Shown one piece after another: positions 1,357 to 38,386 of a DNA stretch of 63,548 nt (the first letter of the stretch is position 1; the number at the start of each line of letters is the position of its first letter). Where the stretch lies: the IMG/VR virus record IMGVR_UViG_3300046167_000466, positions 1 through 63,548 of that record; one strand, written 5' to 3'. The notes under the pieces were generated by a model. That model did no database searches. It saw only the letters and a list, made by a program, of their open reading frames with translations, and was not told where the DNA came from. This DNA comes from a virus. Taxonomy: Duplodnaviria; Caudoviricetes. Made by a program: the position numbers and the translations under genes.

Positions 1357-4300
1357 TTAATGCGCTTTCGCTTGAATTATAATCCATTCTGCTCCATCCG
1401 ACCATAACATTACTCCTTCGTAAGATTTAGATATTTCAAAGTCAGAAGCTCCGTCAACTGTTTCACTAAAATCGCTACCTGTTATAAGTACTTTATCACC
1501 CGCTCCATTACCAAAAGTGCCGTCTGAAATAAATCTAACTTTTCTGTATTGCATATCTGCGGCCGGAGGCAAGTTTAAAACATATGTGCCATTAACTCCA
1601 TTCCAGCTTATTTTTACAAGTGTAGCTATATCATCTGCCAATAAACTAGATGATCCACCAGGGGATGCTGTTACATTAAATGGTACTAAATAAGTTGCTT
1701 CCGAAGATTCATCACCACTCATCCTTATTTTAACGTCATTACCATTTCTATATAGCTGACCCACTTCGACACCTGATGCACCAGCATCTGCATCATTCCC
1801 ATAAGAAGTGCTGTAGCGTAAAGCGTGTGCCATAACCTGCATAGAGTCCCCCGCACTTGTATCGCCCGCGGATGTTGGTTTGCCCCTGAACTCCCAAGCT
1901 GTTCGTCTTATTTCATTGTTTACCCCAACCCCGAAAGCTACGGTTGACCTACCGTTTGGGTTATCAGACCTAAGAACAGTAGGGTCAGAAAATTGTCCTA
2001 GAATAATAGTATTGTTCGTAGCGGGTTTATTTTCTCTACCGATTAAATAAGTTCTTTGCGTGTTTAAAACATCGTTGTTATCTCCTATTGCAAATGATTT
2101 AAAATTAATATTATCATTTCCAAAACCAAATGCATATGCTTTTTCAATAGCAGATATACTATTGTTAGTACCAACGGCCACAGATGCAGCGGCGGCAATT
2201 GTATTAGACTTTCCAAAAGCGTACGACTCATTACCAGTAATTGCATTTTGTTGGCCAATTGAATATGTTCTATCAGCAGTAGAGCTGCTATTAACACCAA
2301 TAATATAAGCTCCTTGGTTATCGCTGTTTATAGTATTAGACGTACCTAAACAAAGTATACGATCACCTAAAACATTATTTAAGTGTCCAAATATCATCAT
2401 AGACCCAAAACCATCACCTGTTTCTGTAACTGTATTTCTGTCACCTAAAACAATAGTGTCGACAGAATCTACAGTGTTTTCTCTACCAATTACAAATTGT
2501 CTTGCTACTCCCTCGGATGTAGTGTTATCGACCCCAGCCACAAAGCTAGTTCCGCCTTTAACTGTATTAGTTGTACCAACTACTAATGTTTCACTTGCAT
2601 TTAAATTATTGCTTTTCCCTATAACTGTAGAGTTAAGAATTTCGGTTTGGAGATCGGTAGCCTGTATGTTGTTGTATTCACCAACCACAATAGCCCTAGC
2701 TGTTCTTCCGCTTGTGCTTCCTACGGAATTATAATTACCAACTTGGAGTGTTCTATTGGATGTTCCTGGTAGAGGTACGTTGTTCCAATCGCCTATCAAA
2801 AGGTTATCTTCATACGAGCCCACGCCGCTTATGGTGGTGGGTATAACTTTAACAGGAGAGTCACCTAACACCCCATTTGGACCATCTGACCATACTGGCA
2901 AGGTTTGGGTTGTACCAGTTCCTGTTACATTTCCCCCAGCGTCTGTAATTTCAATTATATCACCACTTGATGTAACGCCCAACCTGTATGCTTCAGTACC
3001 GGTTATTGTACCGGCTCCATAAGCATTTAATCTTATACTGTCACCGCCAAGTGCCAGCTGGCCCGCTACGGATGTTAAAGCGTTTTTGCCTATCGCGGTT
3101 GAACTCGAGTATTGCGCTATTGCATTGTCCCCGGCTGCTAAGGCAAACTCCACAACGTCGGTTTCGCTAGCTACTGATTTAACAATCGCGTGACCAATCG
3201 CTGTGGATTTTTCTACATCTGGACCATAGTCTGGGTAGGTAAATCCGGGAACTACTTTTGCTTCGTAGCCTAGGGCGACATTATGCTTACCCTGCGCCAA
3301 AGTAAAAGAGCCGATAGCTGCATTGAAATTATCAATTGTCCTGGGCTCATAGCCTAAACCGATACTAAATCTCCCTTGAACAAAAGGTACGTAGCCTGCT
3401 CCAAAACCACCCATTCCGGAAACTAGACCACCAAACCCTCTTTCAGGATCGAAGTCTTCGCCAACGCCAAATAAAGCTCCCGCAGAACCTGTAACTGTAT
3501 TTTGGTTACCTGCTGCGAAGCCTGATGGTGCGCTCACCGTATTGTAGTCACCGAAAGCCTGCCCGCCACTAGCTGTAACTATATTTCCTATACCACTTGC
3601 AAAAGAATTTGTATTTGATATTTCATTACTAGTTCCAAAAGCCGCGGAAGCAGAGCCCGTTACTGTGTTATTATTACCAGAAGCGAAAGCATTAGGGTCA
3701 GATATTGTATTGTTTTCACCAAAAACAAACCCCCTATGCACGCTAGTTGTATTTCCGACTCCAAAATTATATACGCCCAAATCGTCGTCAAAAGAAACAG
3801 TTGTAGACTGAGTTTGGATGTTATTACTGTCTCCGATCCATATTCTGTTTTCATCCAACGCGAATTGCCCATTAACAGCAATTGTTATAGTATCACCTAA
3901 AGCTGTTGTTGAAATAGCGTTGCCACCTAATATTTTAAACACCTGGGTATCTAAATCTACTGTGCCGTCACCCACGTCCCCCTCGAAGTTTAAATCATCG
4001 TCTTCCGGATCTGCCCAGTACACTTTACCAACACCATCCGTTGTAAGTTGTGAGCCAGCAGCCCCAATATCATTTGGAAGCTCCATTGTGTATGAAGCGG
4101 GTAAATCAGCATGAGCAGGCGCTTTAATAGTAATACCTGTTGCGTTTAGGCTTGAATTTAAAATCAGCCGCCCAGATTCAGCAACCCCTTCTGTTAGCTT
4201 TCCTTTTATCTTAGCTTCTTTATCAACTTGCAATAATCCAGCAATTGTTATTTTAGTACCGTCAGGGTTTACATCTTGCGACATAATAGAGCCTGTTATA

Positions 4301-4518
4301 CGAGTGGCGTTTGAGCCTAATGTATCTTGGGTATCTCTAAATACTGGAATTGTAAAACTAACTGCATCTGGGTCTATAAACTTATCAATGACATATTCTG
4401 CAATATCGCCTAGAAAAAAGTTTTTAGTTACTAGTTCATTAGTATCTCCATCTGTACCGATTATGCGGTCAAGATCGGATATATGTAGGTCCTTTTGATA
4501 AGTAGGTATTCTAGCCAT
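1357..4518 (-). CDS. Tail fibre / receptor-binding protein with YadA-head-like beta-roll repeats
   Basis: 1053 aa; many ~14-aa A-x-G-x-x-N repeats; N-terminus MARIxxY...D-x-(I/L)-(I/V)GTD shared with the next gene. Confidence 0.8.
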   Translation of the reverse strand: MARIPTYQKDLHISDLDRIIGTDGDTNELVTKNFFLGDIAEYVIDKFIDPDAVSFTIPVFRDTQDTLGSNATRITGSIMSQDVNPDGTKITIAGLLQVDKEAKIKGKLTEGVAESGRLILNSSLNATGITIKAPAHADLPASYTMELPNDIGAAGSQLTTDGVGKVYWADPEDDDLNFEGDVGDGTVDLDTQVFKILGGNAISTTALGDTITIAVNGQFALDENRIWIGDSNNIQTQSTTVSFDDDLGVYNFGVGNTTSVHRGFVFGENNTISDPNAFASGNNNTVTGSASAAFGTSNEISNTNSFASGIGNIVTASGGQAFGDYNTVSAPSGFAAGNQNTVTGSAGALFGVGEDFDPERGFGGLVSGMGGFGAGYVPFVQGRFSIGLGYEPRTIDNFNAAIGSFTLAQGKHNVALGYEAKVVPGFTYPDYGPDVEKSTAIGHAIVKSVASETDVVEFALAAGDNAIAQYSSSTAIGKNALTSVAGQLALGGDSIRLNAYGAGTITGTEAYRLGVTSSGDIIEITDAGGNVTGTGTTQTLPVWSDGPNGVLGDSPVKVIPTTISGVGSYEDNLLIGDWNNVPLPGTSNRTLQVGNYNSVGSTSGRTARAIVVGEYNNIQATDLQTEILNSTVIGKSNNLNASETLVVGTTNTVKGGTSFVAGVDNTTSEGVARQFVIGRENTVDSVDTIVLGDRNTVTETGDGFGSMMIFGHLNNVLGDRILCLGTSNTINSDNQGAYIIGVNSSSTADRTYSIGQQNAITGNESYAFGKSNTIAAAASVAVGTNNSISAIEKAYAFGFGNDNINFKSFAIGDNNDVLNTQRTYLIGRENKPATNNTIILGQFSDPTVLRSDNPNGRSTVAFGVGVNNEIRRTAWEFRGKPTSAGDTSAGDSMQVMAHALRYSTSYGNDADAGASGVEVGQLYRNGNDVKIRMSGDESSEATYLVPFNVTASPGGSSSLLADDIATLVKISWNGVNGTYVLNLPPAADMQYRKVRFISDGTFGNGAGDKVLITGSDFSETVDGASDFEISKSYEGVMLWSDGAEWIIIQAKAH

Positions 4519-12410: not shown

Positions 12411-12599
12411 ATGTATTGTAAATGTGGCACTGAAGTGCACCCTATTAGATTAGAATATGGTTATAAAACATGTGTACCTTGTAGTACTGTTGAAGACTAC
12501 AGTTATGTACCGATTATAACTCACAAAACAGGTAATACAATACAAATCGTCAGCCAAGAAGTAAGTGCATCAGTACACAGAGCTTGGCGGCGTAAATAG
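12411..12599 (+). CDS. C4 zinc-finger protein, DksA/TraR-finger-like
   Basis: C-K-CGTEVHPIRLEYGYKTC-VP-C resembles CxxCGxxIxxxRL...CxxC. Confidence 0.55.
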   Translation: MYCKCGTEVHPIRLEYGYKTCVPCSTVEDYSYVPIITHKTGNTIQIVSQEVSASVHRAWRRK

Positions 12600-12600
12600 T

Positions 12601-13011
12601 GTGTTTCCCACTAAGACTATGACGAATAGTTGAAACTTGCTAATCGGCAAGCGGCAGAAAGGATGTTTGACGCACTAGCTAGACGAGTAGCTTAGTTAGG
12701 CACATAGGAACTCAGGGAGGAGATACGTGTGTACATAAGTGAATTGCTAGTAACGAGAAGAAGTCTGGAAACCAGATTAAAGGCGACAAGATATTGACGG
12801 CACTAGGGTTTGATCACCTGTAATTGTGTGAACGATGACGTCGGCTCGATGAAGGTGAAAGATAGTATAAACAGAGAAAAGAGTATAAGTCAGGGCATAC
12901 TAGTTAATGACGTGCATCTCTAACATTCCAGTTCTATCCTCTTCTCAAGTATACAGGTATGGGCACGAGTGTGGTGCTGTAACTCGACCGAAAAACATAC
13001 GAGCATACCTG
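12601..13011 (+). ncRNA. Candidate large structured non-coding RNA (family unknown)
   Basis: No ORF of 60 aa or more; several hairpins plus long-range pairings 12704-12728/12910-12937 and 12954-12961/13004-13011. Confidence 0.5.
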
Positions 13012-13015
13012 AAAT

Positions 13016-13116
13016 GGGCGTGAAATGGTTAGATGAATAGCAACTGCTCTGAATGTCAGACTTTCGAGTCCGTCATCAGGACTATTCAAACGCGGGTTCG
13101 ATTCCTGCCACGTCCA
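13016..13116 (+). ncRNA. Minimal tmRNA-like RNA (tRNA-like domain only, Ala identity)
   Basis: Acceptor GGGCGTG/CACGTCC-A with G3:U70; stemless D-loop; TGAATAG/CTATTCA helix; T-arm GCGGG-TTCGATT-CCTGC; no anticodon arm. Confidence 0.8.
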
Positions 13117-13118
13117 CT

Positions 13119-13325
13119 ATGGAAATAAATGAATATATAAAAACAGAGATGGCGAAGCTCGATCGAGGTATCGTAGCAACGCCTGAAGACAGAGAACAAC
13201 TAGAGAACTTTGCAGGTGGATGCGGTCAAGGCTCTTTAATACTAATGCAAATGGCAATTAACTTCGGTTATAAAATAGCGTTAGAAAATTTACAAATTGA
13301 ATACGAACAAGAATCGATAATATAA
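13119..13325 (+). CDS. Hypothetical protein (68 aa; start at 13119, not 13053)
   Basis: The ORF-track N-terminal extension overlaps the tmRNA-like element. Confidence 0.65.
   Translation: MEINEYIKTEMAKLDRGIVATPEDREQLENFAGGCGQGSLILMQMAINFGYKIALENLQIEYEQESII
13289..13322 (+). promoter_or_regulatory. Early promoter motif (copy 8)
   Basis: tttaca aattgaat acga acaagaat cgataata. Confidence 0.75.
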
Positions 13326-13340
13326 TAAATTAAAACAAAT

Positions 13341-15289: not shown

Positions 15290-15323
15290 TTTACAAACTT
15301 AATACGAATACAAATCGATAATA
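15290..15323 (+). promoter_or_regulatory. Early promoter motif (copy 9)
   Basis: tttaca aacttaat acga atacaaat cgataata. Confidence 0.75.
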
Positions 15324-15338
15324 TAATAAATTAAAAAT

Positions 15339-29563: not shown

Positions 29564-32500
29564 TTATTGCTGCATTAATATTTCTTGTTTCTTTCTTTTG
29601 TTTTCTGCTCTTGTAGCCGATGCTTTTCTAGCAGCTTCGCTTCTTCTTCTTTTTTCTTCAGCCATATAAGCTTGCTTTTCTTCAGGGCTCATTAAAGCTA
29701 ATTCATCAAGTTTCTGTTGCTGCTTTCTCTTTCTTGTTTCAGCGGCTTTCTTTTTGCCTTCTGCTTTACGATTTGCTTTACCGACAAGCTTAACCCATTC
29801 TTCTTCCTCTTTTCTAGCTTTAACATCCCATGTTCTCCAACCTAATCCCAAAGCTAATCTTTGATAAGATGTATTTCTAGCGTCAAGCGCCTCTGCTATA
29901 CCGTCTATTTCAGCTAAAGCTCTATCTAGCGGTAGGTTTAATCCAGCAGATGAAAGTGATGCTAATATTTCGTAATTAGGTGATATGTTAAATCTTCCGT
30001 CTAAAGTAACATCCCAGCCTTGAGCTTCCATTACATCTTTGTCAAACTTCTTAGTTTGAATTGCGCCGTATACTTTCCTCATCTTAGAACCTATAGGCGG
30101 CGATACGTTCGCTAGTTCTAATAGCGTGTAGGCGTGATCAGCATTATAACCTTTCTTCTCTTCTTTATAGTATCTATTAATTGTGTTCTTTAATGTTGAT
30201 ACTACCGCACCTGTTAATCCAGATCCCCTGAGAATAGTGTCCACCATAGAATTAACAATTCTTTCAGTCTTTGTATTAATGATTTTTTCGTACTGCTCAT
30301 CGTCTTCTTCTTCATCATCAAATCCTGGTATTAATGCAAATAATGAATTTTGCAGCGCACTAAATATAAGGTTTTGTATAAACCCATAATAAGCTATCTT
30401 ACTAATATTAGTCTTAGCATCGCCACGGCCGTTTATAAGATCCTGGCCAGCTTTTTTCATTAATCTAGTGTATTGCATCGGCGTATTTTGAAAAGCCAAT
30501 ACAAGACGCCCTAAATGACTCGACTGTTGTGCAGATACAAGCATAGGATCACCTGATTGCTGTGTCTCATCAGAGATAGCGCTAAAGTCTTCAAATGCTT
30601 TTGCTTCCGCTTCTGCCTGTGATAAACCTTGCTTCTTATAAGTTTTTGTTCTGTTAATTAAAAACGTAGCGCCTCCTGTTGCAATAGCAAAACTATCCGC
30701 TATTTGAGTAGGTGTGAAACCTATTTTTAATAAGTATGCAACTACAGCGCTCGCTTTGTCTTTACTGTTCTTAGCTTGGTTGGCTATCTCTTGCTCTTGC
30801 ACATCGGATTTTAAACCACCACGACGTTCTTTAAGTTTATCAGAGTTAAATATTTTTGACCATGCACTCCAGTATGCTGGTTGATTAGCAAATGCGATAC
30901 CAGCTTTTAACGGATTATTATCACCCCAATTTACAAAGTTAGCAAATGACAACATCTGCATTGCTGCTGATCTACGGTTAAAAAACATTATAGTACCTAC
31001 AGAGTTGTTAACCCAGTTTAACCATTGTTGTTCATAAGCTCCTGGCTGGGCCGGTCTGTTACGGCCAGACTTCATTCGAGCTATTGAGTTCTTTAAAGCA
31101 TTTACATAGCGAGTGCCGTACGCAGCTTCTAGTTTGGTTAAATTGTTTTCGTCAAATATAATATCAACGTTATCGTTAAACTCCTGTAAGTACTCGCCTC
31201 TTGTAAGCACTTCGTTAATTTCATTAATATCTTTTAAAACAGAGCCTGCTATCCAATGCTCGCTCGGAGCAGGCCATTGATCTTGTTTTGATATTGTCTG
31301 CAGACCTTGAGCAAACGACGTTAACATTGGGTCTTTAGCTATCAAGCTGTTTAGTTTCTTTTGATCTCTTTTGGATATACCAGGAACCTCTTGCCCTTGC
31401 TGTGTCCATAAGTATACACGTACCGCTTGATCAACAGTGTAATCTGTGTCTCCGATTTGTTTACCTAAACGTTTTTTCATTCCGGGTAAAGCTTTTAATA
31501 AAGTAGCAAAATCATTTTTAAGCGCACGCCTAGCCTTCTCCATAGCGGCTATACCTCTCATATATGGCGCCACTAAATTATCTTCAAAGAATTTTTGATC
31601 AGCTTCACCTTGCTTGCCTTTACCAGCCAATGTATATGACGTTAGCCCTCTAAAGTCCTCTGCCCCATACGGTAAGAAAACTTTAAATCTACCCTTTTTA
31701 GCGCCTTCTTTTCTTGCTCTGATCTTAGAGTATACGGCTTCAGACGCAATACCTTTATTGCGCTCAATCATATCGTTAAGGTCTTTACCCAGCGCGGCGC
31801 TTCTTTTAACTCTTGCTTGCTGCACTTTACCTTTAACATCAAACGTATTAAGAACATCCTTAACAGCCTTAACATTACCCATATGGTCATCTACAAAATA
31901 AAAGTCATTATAACCTTCTGAAACTTTGCCTACCATCCACGCAGCCTTTGCAGCAGGGGCGCCATTGGCGAGCCCAGTTATGTTTTCAAGCGGTATCTCT
32001 AACCCTATACCTTTTAAAAATCCGTGTATAGCATTTGCCGATTCTGCTGGCCTAGCTGTTAATACAAATATATTTTTGTTACCAAACTTTTGTATTGCCT
32101 TTTTTAATCTAGGGGCTAACGGTCCAGGCGTACCTTTAACAACCTTACTAAATTCACTAAAATCAAATTCAGCTCCTGACTTAGCAAGTTGATCGCCTTG
32201 CTTGGCAAATTCGGCAGGTGTTATTTTCTTTGTTGTACGCGGTACATCTTTTAATACTTTCGCTTGCTCTTCTTTTGTAAGGTTATCAAACTTTCTTAAG
32301 AAACCCGGGAGATCTTTAAACTCATTTGCAAATAATCTTCTAGCGGCAATATCAAGTATTTCTTTATTTGGAGGCATTTTTACTATAACCTCGCTTTTGC
32401 TAAATGCAAGAGTATCATCAAAGTCATATACACTAATACCTTTGGGGTTAGCGGCATATGATTGTTTTCTAGCATTATTTATAGCTTTTTGCTCTGTAGC

Positions 32501-35500
32501 TATTTTAGCGCGCTCAGCAACGTTTTTGGCGCTAAACATTGTATTTAGTAAGGTTTGTACCCTACCAATTGTTTGTAATCCCTTTATATCGTAAAAAGCA
32601 TTTTGGCTTTCTAGTGGTATAGCTAATAATCTTAAGTCGCCAATATCGCTTGTTGATCCTAGCTTTGCGTCCTGCAGATCAGATAATACTTTAGTGTTTA
32701 ATTGTTGATTAAACTCTGTAGTTAATTCATTAATCTTTGCGATTAAAGCATCTTTAACTTGTTGCACGCCGCCGGGGTTTTGCAAAGCGATACCTAGCAT
32801 CGTTAAATACTCTTTAGCGACAGCTACATTAAAATTAGATGAAGGTGTTGCATGCTCACCTTTTATTCTTAATAACTGAGCTAAGGTTTGTTTAGAGCCA
32901 TCAGCTATAAACTTTTTAGCCTCTTTGTAGTTGGGGTGATTTTCATTAAGAACAATTTCACCAGATTCAACTTTTGATACTTGGCTAGCGGTTAATGTGT
33001 TACTATATCCCTTGCCGTTTTGGGTATTTATGTAAACAGCTTGAGATGCAGCTGTCATTTGTATATCGCTAATACCTGTTAAAGATCTAAGTGACTTGCC
33101 TATATTAGTCGTAGACTCTAGCATCCTTAAGAATCCAACGGCTTGTTGTGGTTTAGCTACAGCAATATCAAACGCTGTAGATATAACTTTTTCTATAGCT
33201 TTTTTATTTGCTACATTTAAAGCGTCTACTTCCTCACCGTACTTGTCTATAAAAGCATCAACTTTATCTTGAGCGGTTTGGAATTCTTTATTTAATATAT
33301 CCTTTGTTATAGTAGCGACAATGCCGGAACCAGCTTGTATTAAGCGCATGTCCTCAGGATTAAATCCTATGTCTTCACCTGTATCGGGTAATGCTTCTAT
33401 TTTTGCTCTTATTTTAGCGCCTAAAGACTTTGCTTCTTTAGGGTTTAAATATCTATAATGCGCGCCAAAGAAATCTGCTCCCAAAGCTTTTACTAGTGCG
33501 TTTGGTAAAGCATCTATCATAGCTGTACTAAACTGATAGTATTCCTTCATTGCTTGTTTGTTATCACGAGCTGAATTGTTTTCAAAATACTGATCAATAA
33601 ACGGCTGTACATTTTCTGGTGCGTCCTTCCATTTCTTAATAGATTGCTTATACCTAGCCGTGTCAACTTTTATATTAGCTGTAATATTTTCATAAGCTGC
33701 TCTGTCTTCGGCTGACAATACTTCCAGTAATGCTAATGAACCATCTAGGTCTCCGTCTATTTCCAATGCTAACGCATCTCTAAATATTGTTTGAGTGTTT
33801 ACAATAGCGCTTCTTTTAACAAGACCACGTTCGCTTTGCTTTGCTACTTCCTCAACAAAGTTATCCGCTATAGCCATACCAAGCATCTCTTGATTATTTT
33901 CAAAAGCTTGACTTATAGGACTATCTGGATCCTTTAATGCGTCGTTTATAACATCAAAACCGTATTCTTCAGCTAGCGCTTTAGATAAAGATTCTTTACG
34001 GCCACGTATAACGTCACCATCTTTAAACATATAGCTAAGAAATTGTTCGTCAGTAATTTTGTTTGCCGCATTTGGTAAACGTCTTACTATTTCAGGGCCC
34101 GATGTTTTACCTTGTTGTTTGGTTGATGTCTTTGCTCTATCTATTGTTTTACCTTGCCAATCGCTAGTGTATTTAGGTATAAATATAAAATCACCGTTAG
34201 AGTCTTTAACTCTTTTGCCTTCGTTGTCAACTTTATAAGTACCGCCGACAGATTTTTGTATTGTAAACGGCATAGCTTGCATCAACCATGTGGTTGTCAT
34301 GTTCTCAAGTATAGCTTTCTTGTATCTAAGTACATTTTTCTTAAGCTCATCACCCTTCTTTTTGCCTAGCATCTTTTTAAACTCAATATCGATTGCCTTG
34401 CCAAGCTCACGCTTCAGCTCATTGATAATAGGTGTTACAGACGCGTTAGGCCCTAACGGTGCATCTAATCTGCTTTTTAATACTCTAGCTATAGATATTA
34501 TTTTTTGCTCTACAGCTTTAGCTTGCTCTGCCGGTAATATTCTTGTTTGTGTAAGATTTCTATATTTAGGTTTTTCTTGCGTGACTGGAGCCTGCTCTGG
34601 TGCAATTAAATCTTTTTGATCTTCAGGCTGTAAATTGTCGACCGTACCTAAAAATTGTCTTTCGGTTGGTTGTAGTTTATACTCTGCTCTAACAACGTCA
34701 GCTATACGAAAACTAATTCTTCCGCCAAGATAACCACTTAGTTGGCCTCTCCCGTCCCAACCTGTATTTTCTTTGGCTAAGTATATTCTTCCAACAACTT
34801 CAGCTGTAAAATCTTGCAACGCTTGAGGTGGCAATGTATATCTCCCGGCTATTTGAGCTGCAACCATGTTTGTAATCTCTTCAAACAATAAGGCTTGAGC
34901 TCTTGGCCCAGACAGTTGCTCTTTTGTTATAAGATTAACCCTTGCATTACTTTTTGCCGCCGCTGAACTTATTTGCTGTTTAGTTATTCCGCTACCAGCT
35001 ATTCCTTTCTTTATTGAAAAGCCAGCAGCTTTGTTTTGAAAATTAGCAACAAAAGCGTAAACATCACTTGCACTATTAATTTTAAATAACGGCGCCATAT
35101 CACCATTAAATTTTTGCAACAAATTGTTAATAAATGTTTTTGCTCCAAACAAATTACCGTAACTGCTTCTAGGCAAAATACCTATTGCCGTGAAGTCCCC
35201 TATAAGCTGTATAAGCTCATCTGCATCAACACCATTAGTTTCAGTATATTTTCCTTTACCTTCTTTTGTATAATAAGCCATACGCTCATTAAAAACATTC
35301 ATTTCTTCCTGCGTGATCTTGCCTTGCTCAAATCTAGACTGTACGTCTTGTAATATATTTTGTACAATATCATTAGCAGAATCAACTGCTAGCTTATCGT
35401 TTTTTATTAGGCCAGCCGCAACAGCTTGCTGGTGTCCTATTTCATGTAAAGGTGATACCGCAGCTATTTTAGCATTTATACCGCCTTGGGACATTTGATT

Positions 35501-38386
35501 TAAAATAACCTCTTCGTAAATAATTTGATCACCATTTAGCTCAAATGAAGCATTTGATGTTCCGTAGTTATCTAAAAATTTCTTTTTCGCTGCGTCATTA
35601 TCTTTAAAAGCTTGATCCGCATAAGCCAAAGCCTCTGCCTTGTCTTTAATTAATACACTGTTTATACCTGGATTATTCTCAGCTATATATTTATAAGTAT
35701 TATAAGTTCTAGCATTAACTTCTGCCTCAACTGGGTTTGCTGTATTTTTAGCAAACTTCTCGATATTAGTTTCACCTCTGCTAAGCATTTTTTGATTAGC
35801 GTTGAACAACTCTTGGGCTTTAGAGCTTAGTCTATCAAATTCTTTTTTATTTAAATCTGTAACATCTAAGTCTTGCGCTTCAAGTTTTAACCTACGTATT
35901 TCAGCGTGGTTTTCAAATACAGTTTCAATTTCACTGCCAGTAAGATCTTTAAGATTAAGCATTACATCAGTGTTCTCTATACCCGCCTGAGTAATAAGAC
36001 GATCTCTTTCAAATCTCAATGCTCTAGCTTCAGCAGTTCGCCCGTCTAAGTTTTCTAACTCCGCTTGAATACCAAACAATTCATCTCTAATCTCTGCTTC
36101 TCTGCGGCTTTGTTTTCTAGTTTTAACAGCCCCCGCAACTTGACTATATATGTTTTGGCTAACACTAGGTCCAGATATAGCTAAAGATGTTACCATGGTG
36201 TTCCTAAAGAATTCACCATCTAATCCTTCTATAAGACTTTTGGGGTTGTTGGGCTGGAATATAACATTGTCAGATGCGTTTTGGCCTATAAGAGTCATGC
36301 TCTCTTCTAGCATTTCTATACCTGCTCCAATACCTGTTGCATTAAGCAAACCTACATTTTTAGCAACCCTTGAGCCTACCGCGTCTCCAAATAGTTTTCT
36401 AAATTGATTACCGCCAACAGATTTTGAATACTTTTGAAAATTACTTATAAAGCCTAATGTACCTATTCTTTCTGCTCCAGCCGCAATACCACCATATATT
36501 ACACTATTAAGGCCTTTTTGGAACATACCCAAACTTAACAGATCCTCTTGGTCTTGTATTTGACTTTTAATTTTATTCATATCAGCCACCGCAGCGCCAG
36601 ATTCTTGCATTGCCTTAAGCTCTTCTTTCAGCCCGGCAATTACTTTAGGTGCGTTACGCTGTCCAATTTCTAAATTAGATAATTGCCCACCCGCTTCCAT
36701 AGTAAAAAATGTACCTGTAGCATATCTTGAAGCTGTTTTTACAGCTGCTGCTCTTACAGCCGCGCCACCTCCTGCAGCGGCTACACTACCATATCCCGCT
36801 GTGGCTAAAGCAACTGCTATAGAGGGTGAATTATTAACAAGCATATCGCCAGCATACTGCCAAGCAGTGCTATCATCATCCATTGTTAAATTGCCTGGCA
36901 AATATTTTTCGCTATACTCTTGTAGCTTTTGATTGTAGTCTATTGCTGCGTTGTAAGTTTCTTCATCACCAAACACTCTTGCGATACCACCAACTAACAT
37001 TTTAGCACTACCCACAAACGCGCTATCCCAAACATTGGCCAGCTTATCCATAGTTTTATATGACTTAAGCAAAGCTGCATCACTTATTCCAGCAACTCCG
37101 GCTTGTTCAATTTCATTTGTCAATGCTGTAGACTCCGTGTTTAGTACAACTATTTGAGCATTTATTTTATCTAAAAGATCATTTTCTTGCTTAATTAAAT
37201 TATTTCTTATAGCTAGCTGATCAGGGGCATTGTAATTAACCGTAGAGTACTTTTGCATTTCCGCTTGTAAAGCTTCAAGTGATTTAATGTCACCTTCTAC
37301 ATTAACTTTATCTTTTTCAAAACTTTCTAGTCTGCGACCAATCTCTATTTGATTTTGTTTTTCAACTTCATCTAGTGTTAATTCTAAATTAGGAATAGGA
37401 TCATATGTTACGCCGTCAATAGTTTGTTTTTCAACTAAACTTTTACCTGTAATTTTAAAGTATGCAGCCTGATCTTTTTGTGCTTGCTCAACAGCGTTAG
37501 CGTAAGCTTCTTGTTTCTTTTTTTGCACAGCTTCAGATCCAGTATAAAACTCTGCTAAAGTTTTAGCGTCATCGTCAACACCTCTTAATGGTATTTCCGA
37601 AGCAGATTTTTGCGCTTCATATACAACTTGCGCTTGAGTGTCAGCACTTGCGTCGTCTAATGTAGCGAAGTTAGCTATATTATCTTTATTTAGAGTCATA
37701 CCAAACTCCTCAGCACTGCTTTGTAGTTCTTTGTACCTATCGTATTTATTACCTAACTGCTCCTTAAGGTAATCCTCGTATTGTTCATCTGACTTAAACC
37801 TAGGCATAGACGATGCCCATCCCCCCATGCCAGCATACCCATATCTATGGTCCCTAGACTTAAGCTCACCTAACTTAAAAGTCTTTGCTAATATATTATT
37901 TTTTTCTGTTTCAGCTGTTATACCGAGTACTAACTCTTGATTATCTTTTGCTATTTTTTTAGCTTCAGCTTCTAGCTCCGGATCTATATTTGTAATTAAA
38001 CCTTGCGCCGCATCAACTTTTTTCTGCATTTTTGCATCATAAGCTATAGCGCCTGGGGATCCCTCTCTGTAATATTCTCTACGTATAGATTCAGCGCTTC
38101 TACCTTTTTCACGCTCTTGTCTATAATAACCTTGGTCACCTTTTTGTAATTCCGAAGAAGTATCTTCCGATGGCAACTCCGTAGCTTCGGGTTGAACACC
38201 CGTAATTATGGATGCTCGACTTGGCATTGCTGGAGTTGCAGGCGCATCCGTCCCCGCAGCTCCGTCTTGAAAATCCTCTTCTACAAGCGTTGATCCCGGA
38301 AAATCTTTAAGAAAATTATCCAGTTGTTCTTGCGAGTAATCATCAGTGTTGACAATTCCTCCATTAATCAATTTATAATCTGGCAT
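29564..38386 (-). CDS. Giant internal virion (ejection/polyvalent) protein, 2940 aa
   Basis: Located after tail genes; Gly/Ala hydrophobic segments; HEIGH zincin motif; sigma-2-like segment; HAD motifs DFDDTL/LTAR/FVDD. Confidence 0.8.
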   Translation of the reverse strand: MPDYKLINGGIVNTDDYSQEQLDNFLKDFPGSTLVEEDFQDGAAGTDAPATPAMPSRASIITGVQPEATELPSEDTSSELQKGDQGYYRQEREKGRSAESIRREYYREGSPGAIAYDAKMQKKVDAAQGLITNIDPELEAEAKKIAKDNQELVLGITAETEKNNILAKTFKLGELKSRDHRYGYAGMGGWASSMPRFKSDEQYEDYLKEQLGNKYDRYKELQSSAEEFGMTLNKDNIANFATLDDASADTQAQVVYEAQKSASEIPLRGVDDDAKTLAEFYTGSEAVQKKKQEAYANAVEQAQKDQAAYFKITGKSLVEKQTIDGVTYDPIPNLELTLDEVEKQNQIEIGRRLESFEKDKVNVEGDIKSLEALQAEMQKYSTVNYNAPDQLAIRNNLIKQENDLLDKINAQIVVLNTESTALTNEIEQAGVAGISDAALLKSYKTMDKLANVWDSAFVGSAKMLVGGIARVFGDEETYNAAIDYNQKLQEYSEKYLPGNLTMDDDSTAWQYAGDMLVNNSPSIAVALATAGYGSVAAAGGGAAVRAAAVKTASRYATGTFFTMEAGGQLSNLEIGQRNAPKVIAGLKEELKAMQESGAAVADMNKIKSQIQDQEDLLSLGMFQKGLNSVIYGGIAAGAERIGTLGFISNFQKYSKSVGGNQFRKLFGDAVGSRVAKNVGLLNATGIGAGIEMLEESMTLIGQNASDNVIFQPNNPKSLIEGLDGEFFRNTMVTSLAISGPSVSQNIYSQVAGAVKTRKQSRREAEIRDELFGIQAELENLDGRTAEARALRFERDRLITQAGIENTDVMLNLKDLTGSEIETVFENHAEIRRLKLEAQDLDVTDLNKKEFDRLSSKAQELFNANQKMLSRGETNIEKFAKNTANPVEAEVNARTYNTYKYIAENNPGINSVLIKDKAEALAYADQAFKDNDAAKKKFLDNYGTSNASFELNGDQIIYEEVILNQMSQGGINAKIAAVSPLHEIGHQQAVAAGLIKNDKLAVDSANDIVQNILQDVQSRFEQGKITQEEMNVFNERMAYYTKEGKGKYTETNGVDADELIQLIGDFTAIGILPRSSYGNLFGAKTFINNLLQKFNGDMAPLFKINSASDVYAFVANFQNKAAGFSIKKGIAGSGITKQQISSAAAKSNARVNLITKEQLSGPRAQALLFEEITNMVAAQIAGRYTLPPQALQDFTAEVVGRIYLAKENTGWDGRGQLSGYLGGRISFRIADVVRAEYKLQPTERQFLGTVDNLQPEDQKDLIAPEQAPVTQEKPKYRNLTQTRILPAEQAKAVEQKIISIARVLKSRLDAPLGPNASVTPIINELKRELGKAIDIEFKKMLGKKKGDELKKNVLRYKKAILENMTTTWLMQAMPFTIQKSVGGTYKVDNEGKRVKDSNGDFIFIPKYTSDWQGKTIDRAKTSTKQQGKTSGPEIVRRLPNAANKITDEQFLSYMFKDGDVIRGRKESLSKALAEEYGFDVINDALKDPDSPISQAFENNQEMLGMAIADNFVEEVAKQSERGLVKRSAIVNTQTIFRDALALEIDGDLDGSLALLEVLSAEDRAAYENITANIKVDTARYKQSIKKWKDAPENVQPFIDQYFENNSARDNKQAMKEYYQFSTAMIDALPNALVKALGADFFGAHYRYLNPKEAKSLGAKIRAKIEALPDTGEDIGFNPEDMRLIQAGSGIVATITKDILNKEFQTAQDKVDAFIDKYGEEVDALNVANKKAIEKVISTAFDIAVAKPQQAVGFLRMLESTTNIGKSLRSLTGISDIQMTAASQAVYINTQNGKGYSNTLTASQVSKVESGEIVLNENHPNYKEAKKFIADGSKQTLAQLLRIKGEHATPSSNFNVAVAKEYLTMLGIALQNPGGVQQVKDALIAKINELTTEFNQQLNTKVLSDLQDAKLGSTSDIGDLRLLAIPLESQNAFYDIKGLQTIGRVQTLLNTMFSAKNVAERAKIATEQKAINNARKQSYAANPKGISVYDFDDTLAFSKSEVIVKMPPNKEILDIAARRLFANEFKDLPGFLRKFDNLTKEEQAKVLKDVPRTTKKITPAEFAKQGDQLAKSGAEFDFSEFSKVVKGTPGPLAPRLKKAIQKFGNKNIFVLTARPAESANAIHGFLKGIGLEIPLENITGLANGAPAAKAAWMVGKVSEGYNDFYFVDDHMGNVKAVKDVLNTFDVKGKVQQARVKRSAALGKDLNDMIERNKGIASEAVYSKIRARKEGAKKGRFKVFLPYGAEDFRGLTSYTLAGKGKQGEADQKFFEDNLVAPYMRGIAAMEKARRALKNDFATLLKALPGMKKRLGKQIGDTDYTVDQAVRVYLWTQQGQEVPGISKRDQKKLNSLIAKDPMLTSFAQGLQTISKQDQWPAPSEHWIAGSVLKDINEINEVLTRGEYLQEFNDNVDIIFDENNLTKLEAAYGTRYVNALKNSIARMKSGRNRPAQPGAYEQQWLNWVNNSVGTIMFFNRRSAAMQMLSFANFVNWGDNNPLKAGIAFANQPAYWSAWSKIFNSDKLKERRGGLKSDVQEQEIANQAKNSKDKASAVVAYLLKIGFTPTQIADSFAIATGGATFLINRTKTYKKQGLSQAEAEAKAFEDFSAISDETQQSGDPMLVSAQQSSHLGRLVLAFQNTPMQYTRLMKKAGQDLINGRGDAKTNISKIAYYGFIQNLIFSALQNSLFALIPGFDDEEEDDEQYEKIINTKTERIVNSMVDTILRGSGLTGAVVSTLKNTINRYYKEEKKGYNADHAYTLLELANVSPPIGSKMRKVYGAIQTKKFDKDVMEAQGWDVTLDGRFNISPNYEILASLSSAGLNLPLDRALAEIDGIAEALDARNTSYQRLALGLGWRTWDVKARKEEEEWVKLVGKANRKAEGKKKAAETRKRKQQQKLDELALMSPEEKQAYMAEEKRRRSEAARKASATRAENKRKKQEILMQQ

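Follow-up and report, generated by a model that had tools for sequence, protein, structure and literature searches.

A candidate tag-less tmRNA, reduced to its tRNA-like domain, in a phage of likely flavobacterial host

The IMG/VR virus record IMGVR_UViG_3300046167_000466, 63,548 bp long, complete and with terminal repeats, was analysed over its whole length, referred to below as the window. At positions 13016-13116 it holds a transfer-messenger RNA (tmRNA)-type tRNA-like domain (TLD) of ~100 nt in which the tag-coding part is missing. We regard it as very probable that this element is a TLD-only tmRNA derivative under selection. With moderate confidence, we further propose that it is a functional phage gene for a tag-less and pseudoknot-less tmRNA, likely competing with the host tmRNA; that its role is the inhibition of host trans-translation is put forward more tentatively. 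The original prediction was of a tmRNA-type TLD with alanine identity marks and without an mRNA-like domain. The end-to-end alignment to the Rfam family RF00023 (tmRNA) bears this out, and the coordinates and parts that had been listed are right base for base.

Architecture of the element

The acceptor stem is paired at seven of seven positions, with G:T as its third pair (G3:U70; Table 1). The D-loop-like stretch that follows, AAATGGTTAGA, has no D-stem partner strand and is nearly invariant across the family described below. A plain sequence search of the window found one T-arm-like site, which is that of the element. Resume codon, tag frame, and stop codon are not present, the insert being only a 41-nt hairpin, and ARAGORN calls no tmRNA. 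The pseudoknots PK1-PK4 were not found either; 33 nt stand in for 296 central positions of RF00023. Two possible short tag frames were considered: the window insert contains CAA-CTG-CTC-TGA, and many family members have a TAA where the helix meets the linker. Both were judged to be chance or sterically implausible.

RF00023 aligns 13016-13119 to model positions 1-374, end to end, with 37.5 bits (E 4.4e-15) in the whole-genome scan and 28.9 bits (E 1.4e-10) in a local scan, and it matches the acceptor stem, D-loop, helix 2a, T arm, and ACCA tail. The tRNA model RF00005 reaches 11.3 bits (E about 1, T arm only) against the 37.5 bits of RF00023; a full tRNA fold thus does not score better than the predicted one, and neither RF00005 nor ARAGORN yields a cloverleaf with a D stem and an anticodon arm. 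The mitochondrial tmRNA model, RF02544, has no match in the window at E up to 10. Over the full length of the window, ARAGORN calls neither a tRNA nor a tmRNA, and a search of Rfam at its gathering scores is empty, which is why the element is unannotated. A covariance model of our own (R1), built with the window sequence included, finds one copy in the window at 62.7 bits and nothing else above 9 bits. Folding of the single sequence gives no significant signal (z = -1.64), and a competing helix is formed in the fold of minimum energy; at -30.7 versus -31.3 kcal/mol, the tRNA-like-domain fold lies 0.6 kcal/mol above it.

Two other resemblances were rejected: one to C/D-box snoRNAs (8-17 bits, E near 1 or above) as chance, and a hammerhead-like CTGATGA on the minus strand, where the GAAA element is missing and no Rfam ribozyme matches.

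Table 1. Parts of the tmRNA-like element, in window coordinates.
Feature	Position	Strand	Basis or remark
Acceptor stem, 5′ strand GGGCGTG; third base is the G of the G3:U70 wobble	13016-13022	+	Sequence reading, RF00023 alignment
Stemless D-loop-like stretch, 11 nt, with GG pair	13023-13033	+	Placed by RF00023 at the tmRNA D-loop
Closing helix, 5′ strand TGAATAG; equivalent of tmRNA helix 2a	13034-13040	+	Sequence reading, RF00023, covariation
Insert, 41 nt, irregular hairpin with UUCG loop	13041-13081	+	At the site of the tmRNA pseudoknots and tag frame
Tetraloop hairpin within the insert, GACT-TTCG-AGTC	13059-13070	+	Sequence reading
Closing helix, 3′ strand CTATTCA	13082-13088	+	Sequence reading, RF00023, covariation
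Linker AAC, at the place of GGAC in standard tmRNA	13089-13091	+	AAC or AAAC in most members
T arm, GCGGG (13092-13096) / TTCGATT (13097-13103) / CCTGC (13104-13108)	13092-13108	+	
Acceptor stem, 3′ strand CACGTCC (13109-13115), and discriminator A73 (13116)	13109-13116	+	
Trailer CTA in place of CCA	13117-13119	+	CCA not encoded

Distribution of the element in viral contigs

The element is one member of a large family in marine flavobacterial phages that has gone unannotated. The same domain is carried by well over 100 IMG/VR stretches, most of which are 50-70 kb relatives of Flavobacterium/Cellulophaga podophages. Syntenic loci (L-numbers label the compared loci) were fetched through a neighboring 158-aa protein; the domain is present in all nine that have the upstream flank, with a differing insert (L010 has no flank), and L008 carries two copies with a true tRNA-Thr between them.

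Viral contigs were searched with two pattern scans. The first was anchored at the 3′ side, and its pattern imposed U70, A73, and CTA; it found at least 119 stretches. Extraction of the element wherever a pairing 5′ strand lay within 200 nt gave 85 distinct elements among the matches listed, of which seven were dropped, being true tRNAs or longer elements cut by the nearest-strand rule. The 78 distinct elements left are 63-185 nt long, while the remaining matches are 3′ ends of standard or permuted tmRNAs, or remnants. The second scan, anchored at the 5′ side, placed no constraint on positions 3 and 4 or on any part of the 3′ half. Of the 69 distinct stretches that it returned, 39 are elements, all with 7/7 acceptor pairing. 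In the other 30, no T arm lies within 260 nt, and these resemble chance matches, mostly in coding sequence. D stem and anticodon arm are absent in all of the about 80 variants.

Deposited phage genomes appear to lack the family. BLAST of the element and one relative against 50,697 phage records gave T-arm matches only, and the covariance model detected no intact member in five cultured or complete relatives, namely MW202828.1, Flavobacterium phage elemoC, Cellulophaga phages phi38:1 and phi46:3, or Tenacibaculum phage Gundel_1. This absence may explain why the family is missing from a database built on RefSeq viruses.

Conserved identity marks and covariation

The G3:U70 pair is the AlaRS identity element. 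Among the 39 elements of the 5′-anchored scan, in which the 3′ half was free, 37 have G3:U70, all have A73, and 37 have the trailer CTA. In the 3′-anchored scan, G3 stands opposite the imposed U70 in 77 of the 78 elements listed. Pair 4:69 covaries (C:G, G:C, A:U, and U:A), and the retention of G3:U70 while its neighbor varies is what one would expect if the AlaRS identity element is under selection. The T stem, whose 5′ strand was not imposed by the search pattern, is 100% paired in 57 aligned sequences, with three pairs changed on both sides.

Helix 2 is out of register in both the MAFFT and the model-fitted alignments (59% and 66% paired, respectively). Because the alignments misplace it, a script anchored on the invariant D-loop was used. 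Forty distinct elements, including that of the window, gave 29 different helix 2 sequences at the same place. Paired with their own partners, these have a mean of 5.8 contiguous pairs, and 21 of the 29 form 5 bp or more; with swapped partners, the mean falls to 2.6 pairs and at least 5 bp are reached in 69 of 812 combinations. Hence, the covariation in related phages that the original prediction called for is found in the T stem, pair 4:69, and helix 2, and homologs do conserve both G3:U70 (37/39) and the helix, the latter through 29 sequences. The clade, of well over 100 stretches, is very probably under clear purifying selection.

Probable descent from tmRNA

The likeness to SsrA RNA as modeled by RF00023 extends to the G3:U70 acceptor stem, A73, the stemless D-loop with its GG, helix 2, and the T arm; unlike SsrA, the element has no pseudoknots, resume codon, tag frame, or stop codon, is about 100 instead of about 350 nt long, and scores below the family cut-off. 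With tRNA-Ala it shares G3:U70, A73, and a T arm with TTCGATT. However, the D stem and anticodon arm of tRNA-Ala have no counterpart in the about 80 variants. In our reading, the element descends from tmRNA and not from tRNA. In the family members L021, L037, and those of the L044 type, the D-loop ends in GGTTTTGAC or TTCGAC and the junction is GGAA or GGAC. The tmRNAs of two Bacteroidetes metagenome-assembled genomes (MAGs) have a D-loop of the same form (…GGTTTTGAC) and end in …GGAC-T arm. Members that combine GGTTTTGAC with a GGAA junction are therefore intermediate forms that tie the element to tmRNA. With RF00023, the 3′ part of L037 reaches 29.2 bits on its own. Moreover, an unrelated phage (L035) has a 244-nt tmRNA, with the tag ANKNQFALAA, whose acceptor stem is exactly that of the window. 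Across loci L002-L130, ARAGORN makes seven tmRNA calls, one of which (L022, with an atypical tag) coincides with a member of the family.

Five related complete genomes were compared, and four of them have an intact element (36-38 bits with RF00023); a full tmRNA is present in none. The 22-base 3′ stretch from T loop to discriminator occurs in six contigs among 185,579 species genomes. All six are MAG contigs, each with a complete element; the element is accordingly a phage lineage and no copy of a host gene.

Proposed function

We propose that the element is transcribed with the block of small genes on the + strand, that RNase P would cut its 5′ end, and that a 3′ processing enzyme would trim the other. 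A host enzyme would then add CCA, as for the CCA-less tRNA genes of these phages. Among 105 true tRNA genes in phage loci L002-L130, 46 end in N73-C-T-A and 31 in N73-C-A-A, and CCA is hardly ever encoded; the trailer of the element is the same as that of phage tRNA genes, so that processing and CCA addition are presumably the same as well. Host AlaRS would charge the RNA with alanine and host SmpB would bind it. No SmpB gene was found in the window phage, and the partner would accordingly be the SmpB of the host. Alanylation, SmpB binding, and processing are all predicted here from the letters of the element and its relatives. With neither a resume codon nor a stop codon, trans-translation could not be completed. 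The most likely effect would be competition with host tmRNA over SmpB, and possibly also over AlaRS, EF-Tu, and stalled ribosomes. During infection, fewer unfinished proteins would then be tagged and degraded. In this way, the phage may interfere with host ribosome rescue. Sequestration of SmpB/EF-Tu, tag-less rescue, and a counter to RNA-cleaving defenses had been put forward as possible functions in the original prediction.

The precedents to which the original prediction appealed, mycobacteriophage DS6A and organelle tmRNAs without a coding sequence (CDS), are real and are described in two sources (PMC4131195, PMC11915505). The phage DS6A sequence is said to be "little more than the TLD" (PMC4131195); it is listed as "TLD only" in its tmRNA Website entry, and CDS-less organelle forms are reported (PMC4131195, PMC11915505). 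A DS6A-like molecule, whether chargeable or not, is described as strongly inhibiting tmRNA, perhaps through SmpB titration, and the DS6A form inhibited endogenous tmRNA in E. coli (PMC4131195, PMC11915505). According to its article, the 2025 tmRNA database has 79 phage sequences in all and only nine sequences classed as "standard, no CDS" (PMC11915505). Compared by description, in the passages of these sources that treat it, DS6A and the window element are both phage-encoded and reduced nearly to the TLD, have no tag frame, and share the proposal of SmpB titration. They differ in host group, Actinobacteria for DS6A as opposed to a probable flavobacterial host here, and in extent: one reported sequence stands against well over 100 stretches with hypervariable inserts. 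The altered D-loop and junction are a further difference from DS6A. Competition with host tmRNA is ranked first because inhibition is the only experimental precedent in the passages drawn on; the alternatives follow in the order scaffold for variable RNA, tag-less rescue, punctuation of the transcript, and, last, relic.

Several findings weigh against competition with host tmRNA. Both RF00023 scores lie below the gathering cut-off of 47 bits. D-loop and junction depart from the tmRNA consensus (TTAGA for TTCGAC and AAC for GGAC, respectively), and SmpB binding is therefore not assured. The two exceptions to G3:U70 in the 5′-anchored scan, L172 and L195, form one lineage with A3:U70 and an altered T loop, and the one in the 3′-anchored scan, L031, has A3. 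In the fifth related complete genome, the 3′ half only is left (T arm and 3′ acceptor strand, L016:197-270), directly after the end of an ORF and ahead of a tRNA-Met gene, so that the gene is dispensable. Other flavobacterial phages have full or permuted tmRNAs: Cellulophaga phage phi38:1 has a standard full tmRNA instead of the reduced one, flavobacterial phage Calle has a standard tmRNA (PMC8776804), and Maribacter phage Panino has a permuted one (L137, PP540027.1 27557-27889). Full or permuted tmRNAs in such phages argue that more rescue, not less, can help them. Other anticodon-less tRNA-like genes with A3:U70 or U3:A70 in relatives suggest a role for the acceptor/T-arm shape itself. Finally, the hypervariability of the insert and the sharing of modules, set out in the next section, are not explained by SmpB titration.

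As to the Panino call, it overlaps an annotated tRNA-Asp, a tRNA-Thr, and a small CDS on the opposite strand.

Hypervariable insert and alternative readings

The most serious rival holds that the element is a tRNA-like scaffold or processing handle for a variable RNA cargo. The halves of the domain would serve RNase P, 3′ processing, CCA addition, and stability, and the function would reside in the helix 2 modules and the adjoining non-coding region, with, for example, protein decoys or counter-defense RNAs as cargo. We consider this unlikely, yet it accounts for a body of observations on the insert. Insert lengths in the family run from 15 to about 130 nt. When phages with 81-96% identity in the flanks are compared, the halves of the domain show no difference, and helix 2 and its contents are unrelated. 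Domains that differ in their acceptor stems can hold the same insert module, and some modules lie nested in the hairpin loops of others. The window insert is unique among the roughly 85 distinct elements collected (among the matches listed).

Related modules are also found next to the domain. Four nucleotides upstream of it, a hairpin at 12954-13011 (CAGGTATG ... CATACCTG) has an inner part homologous to the inserts of L136 and L103 (scores 68 and 65, versus a shuffled maximum of 31-33), and in one stem a C-G to T-A double change separates them. The hairpin appears to be a structured RNA module found both inside and outside domains. Moreover, the L100 insert shares a run of 20 identical nt with window 12653-12672. 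Such a cassette pattern is not what a peripheral hairpin would produce by neutral drift. Relatives' acceptor/T-arm genes without G3:U70 speak for the scaffold as well, and viral analogies exist in the tRNA-miRNA units of murine gammaherpesvirus 68 and the stable RNAs of the phage T4 tRNA cluster, where a tRNA-like handle stands beside RNA hairpins. Unlike the window element, these units have neither tmRNA ancestry nor alanine identity, and their hairpins lie outside the tRNA-like fold, not within it.

On the other side, an A:U pair would be the more stable choice, yet G3:U70 and A73 persist, and a processing handle needs neither. The smallest inserts are of about 15 nt, no stretch of more than 10 nt in the rest of the phage genome is complementary to the window insert, and the modules match no known RNA family (none in Rfam); peripheral hairpins of structured RNAs are also known to vary neutrally. 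A related idea is that the tmRNA-derived domain is a portable cassette holder. Its halves would ensure that the RNA is processed, receives CCA, and is stable, and they would double as homology arms through which marine flavobacterial phages trade short structured modules from domain to domain and with the adjoining non-coding RNA locus, giving a fast-evolving array of RNA counter-defenses or decoys; we judge this marginally less probable than the scaffold as such. The cassette behavior itself is a new observation, and it may mark a second function.

A second rival shares the structural evidence for competition with host tmRNA and reads it as tag-less rescue: the alanylated RNA would enter stalled ribosomes with SmpB and take over the nascent chain, and other factors or drop-off would free the ribosome. 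Ribosomes would thereby be recycled for the phage, and the proteins would stay unmarked for proteolysis. The full tmRNAs of related phages suggest that rescue capacity is useful to them. CDS-less organelle tmRNAs are, as far as the database article describes them, conserved together with SmpB and thought still to be helpful on incomplete mRNAs (PMC11915505). Like the window element, these forms, in jakobid and oomycete mitochondria and in Mallomonadaceae plastids (about 65 bp), represent a selected TLD without a tag frame (PMC11915505). Unlike it, they belong to organelles and not to a virus, the mitochondrial ones are permuted in the table of that article, and the window has no RF02544 match. 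Tag-less rescue would have to proceed without a decodable stop codon, so that release needs an extra step, and, in the passages of the sources drawn on, the only experimental report on a comparable molecule is one of inhibition. We therefore place its probability somewhat below that of the scaffold and the cassette holder.

It is improbable, in our estimate, that the element is a punctuation mark in a polycistronic transcript, where cleavage at the tRNA-like fold would detach the downstream mRNA from the non-coding RNA before it and release the start codon of ORF 13119-13325 (68 aa), 2 nt past the discriminator. The last base of the trailer, the A at 13119, doubles as the first base of the ATG of this ORF; the overlap (ACTATGG) recurs in L002, L003, L004, L006, L007, and L008, the last of which has no second in-frame ATG, and an uncut acceptor stem would occlude the start site. 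Against this, no ORF starts there in L005, L009, L011, or the second copy of L008, homologs of the ORF (45-51% identity) lie elsewhere in L013, L031, and L044, and cleavage needs no alanine identity marks. That the element is a relic left by the decay of a tmRNA or tRNA-Ala gene of a phage, or a leftover attachment-site fragment, with no present function, is hardly credible: tmRNA genes are common integration sites and L016 keeps the 3′ half only, but the core is nearly invariant against diverging flanks and inserts, compensatory changes maintain the stems, both halves are present and pair, no tyrosine integrase was found in the window, and the 22-base 3′ stretch is absent from bacterial genomes except the six MAG contigs.

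Relation to known systems

The tag-less phage tmRNA is a kind known from DS6A; the flavobacterial clade and its cassettes are new to the literature searched. In these full-text searches, from which the supplementary tables of the tmRNA database (possibly with relevant phage entries) were outside the scope, no description of the family or of its cassette behavior was found. The tag-less phage tmRNA has so far rested on one sequence, that of DS6A, and one inhibition experiment. If competition with host tmRNA is the correct reading, the manipulation of host ribosome rescue by a bare TLD would be a recurrent strategy of marine phages. The sequences of the family, which vary naturally, also allow the nucleotide requirements of AlaRS and SmpB to be studied. 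The element explains an unannotated but conserved gap in these phage genomes, and it belongs to a class that standard tools (ARAGORN, Rfam cut-offs) miss.

The locus and its expression

The window carries phage genes for terminase, portal, primase-helicase, ribonucleotide reductase, and ligase. The nearest named relatives of the terminase are those of podophages of Flavobacterium, Cellulophaga, Tenacibaculum, and Maribacter (32-64% identity), and the public runs that contain window DNA are labeled seawater or marine metagenome; a flavobacterial host is therefore likely. Small ORFs and replication genes make up the + strand block in which the element lies, and the 520-bp stretch that ends with it (12600-13118) has no convincing ORF. 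"Early" expression is suggested by this gene layout only. PHROGs and Pfam gave nothing useful for the ORFs nearest to the element.

Metatranscriptome contigs from four runs of four studies cover 12462-12931, that is, the end of ORF 12411-12599 and non-coding sequence, for which Rfam has no match. This coverage weakly suggests that a stable non-coding RNA lies upstream of the element, in contigs whose depth cannot rank regions and from RNA libraries in which DNA can occur. That no contig spans 12962-13109 proves nothing, since contigs drop small, structured RNAs. Contigs of two runs (X15 and X17) end at 12931, and the letters past this point in X17 resemble a sequencing adapter. Three of the four RNA runs have contigs in which 12596 or 12599 is linked to 12676 through different letters; by eye, one such replacement stretch resembles the L012 insert, and the site is another at which modules tend to be swapped.

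Just upstream of the RNA region, ORF 12411-12599 (62 aa) has cysteines in the arrangement CxC ... CxxC and is 67-84% identical to counterparts in L013, L016, L021, L044, L052, L055, and L136. By eye, it looks similar to zinc fingers of the TraR/DksA type; Pfam and PHROGs have no match. An AT-rich intergenic motif is repeated at window 13311-13329 and 15312-15330, with several sites per related locus. It precedes genes of the + strand block, and a sigma-70 scan finds a promoter-like sequence at 13297-13326. Elsewhere in the window, a 2940-aa ORF at 29564-38386 (- strand) is matched by none of the PHROGs, and the neighboring 1053-aa ORF (1357-4518) is likewise without a match.

Other tRNA-like genes in related phages

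Gundel_1 (L219) has, just before its tRNA cluster, an acceptor stem with G3:C70 and a T arm at NC_062747.1 73061-73129, for which ARAGORN makes no call. A second tiny tRNA-like family, of about 47 nt, has an A3:U70 acceptor stem, a 9-10-nt connector with GG, and a T arm, and no helix 2. Its sites are L031:10428-10497, L058:6680-6754, L052:2725-2792, L096:7485-7541, L048:3890-3967, and L069:8647-8734, with none in the window, and its acceptor stem is held by compensatory changes. At L016:5472-5547 and L028:4286-4361 lies a third kind of anticodon-less tRNA-like gene, which contains an internal insert and has T3:A70 or A3:T70. Between these two copies, the acceptor pairs covary at two positions.

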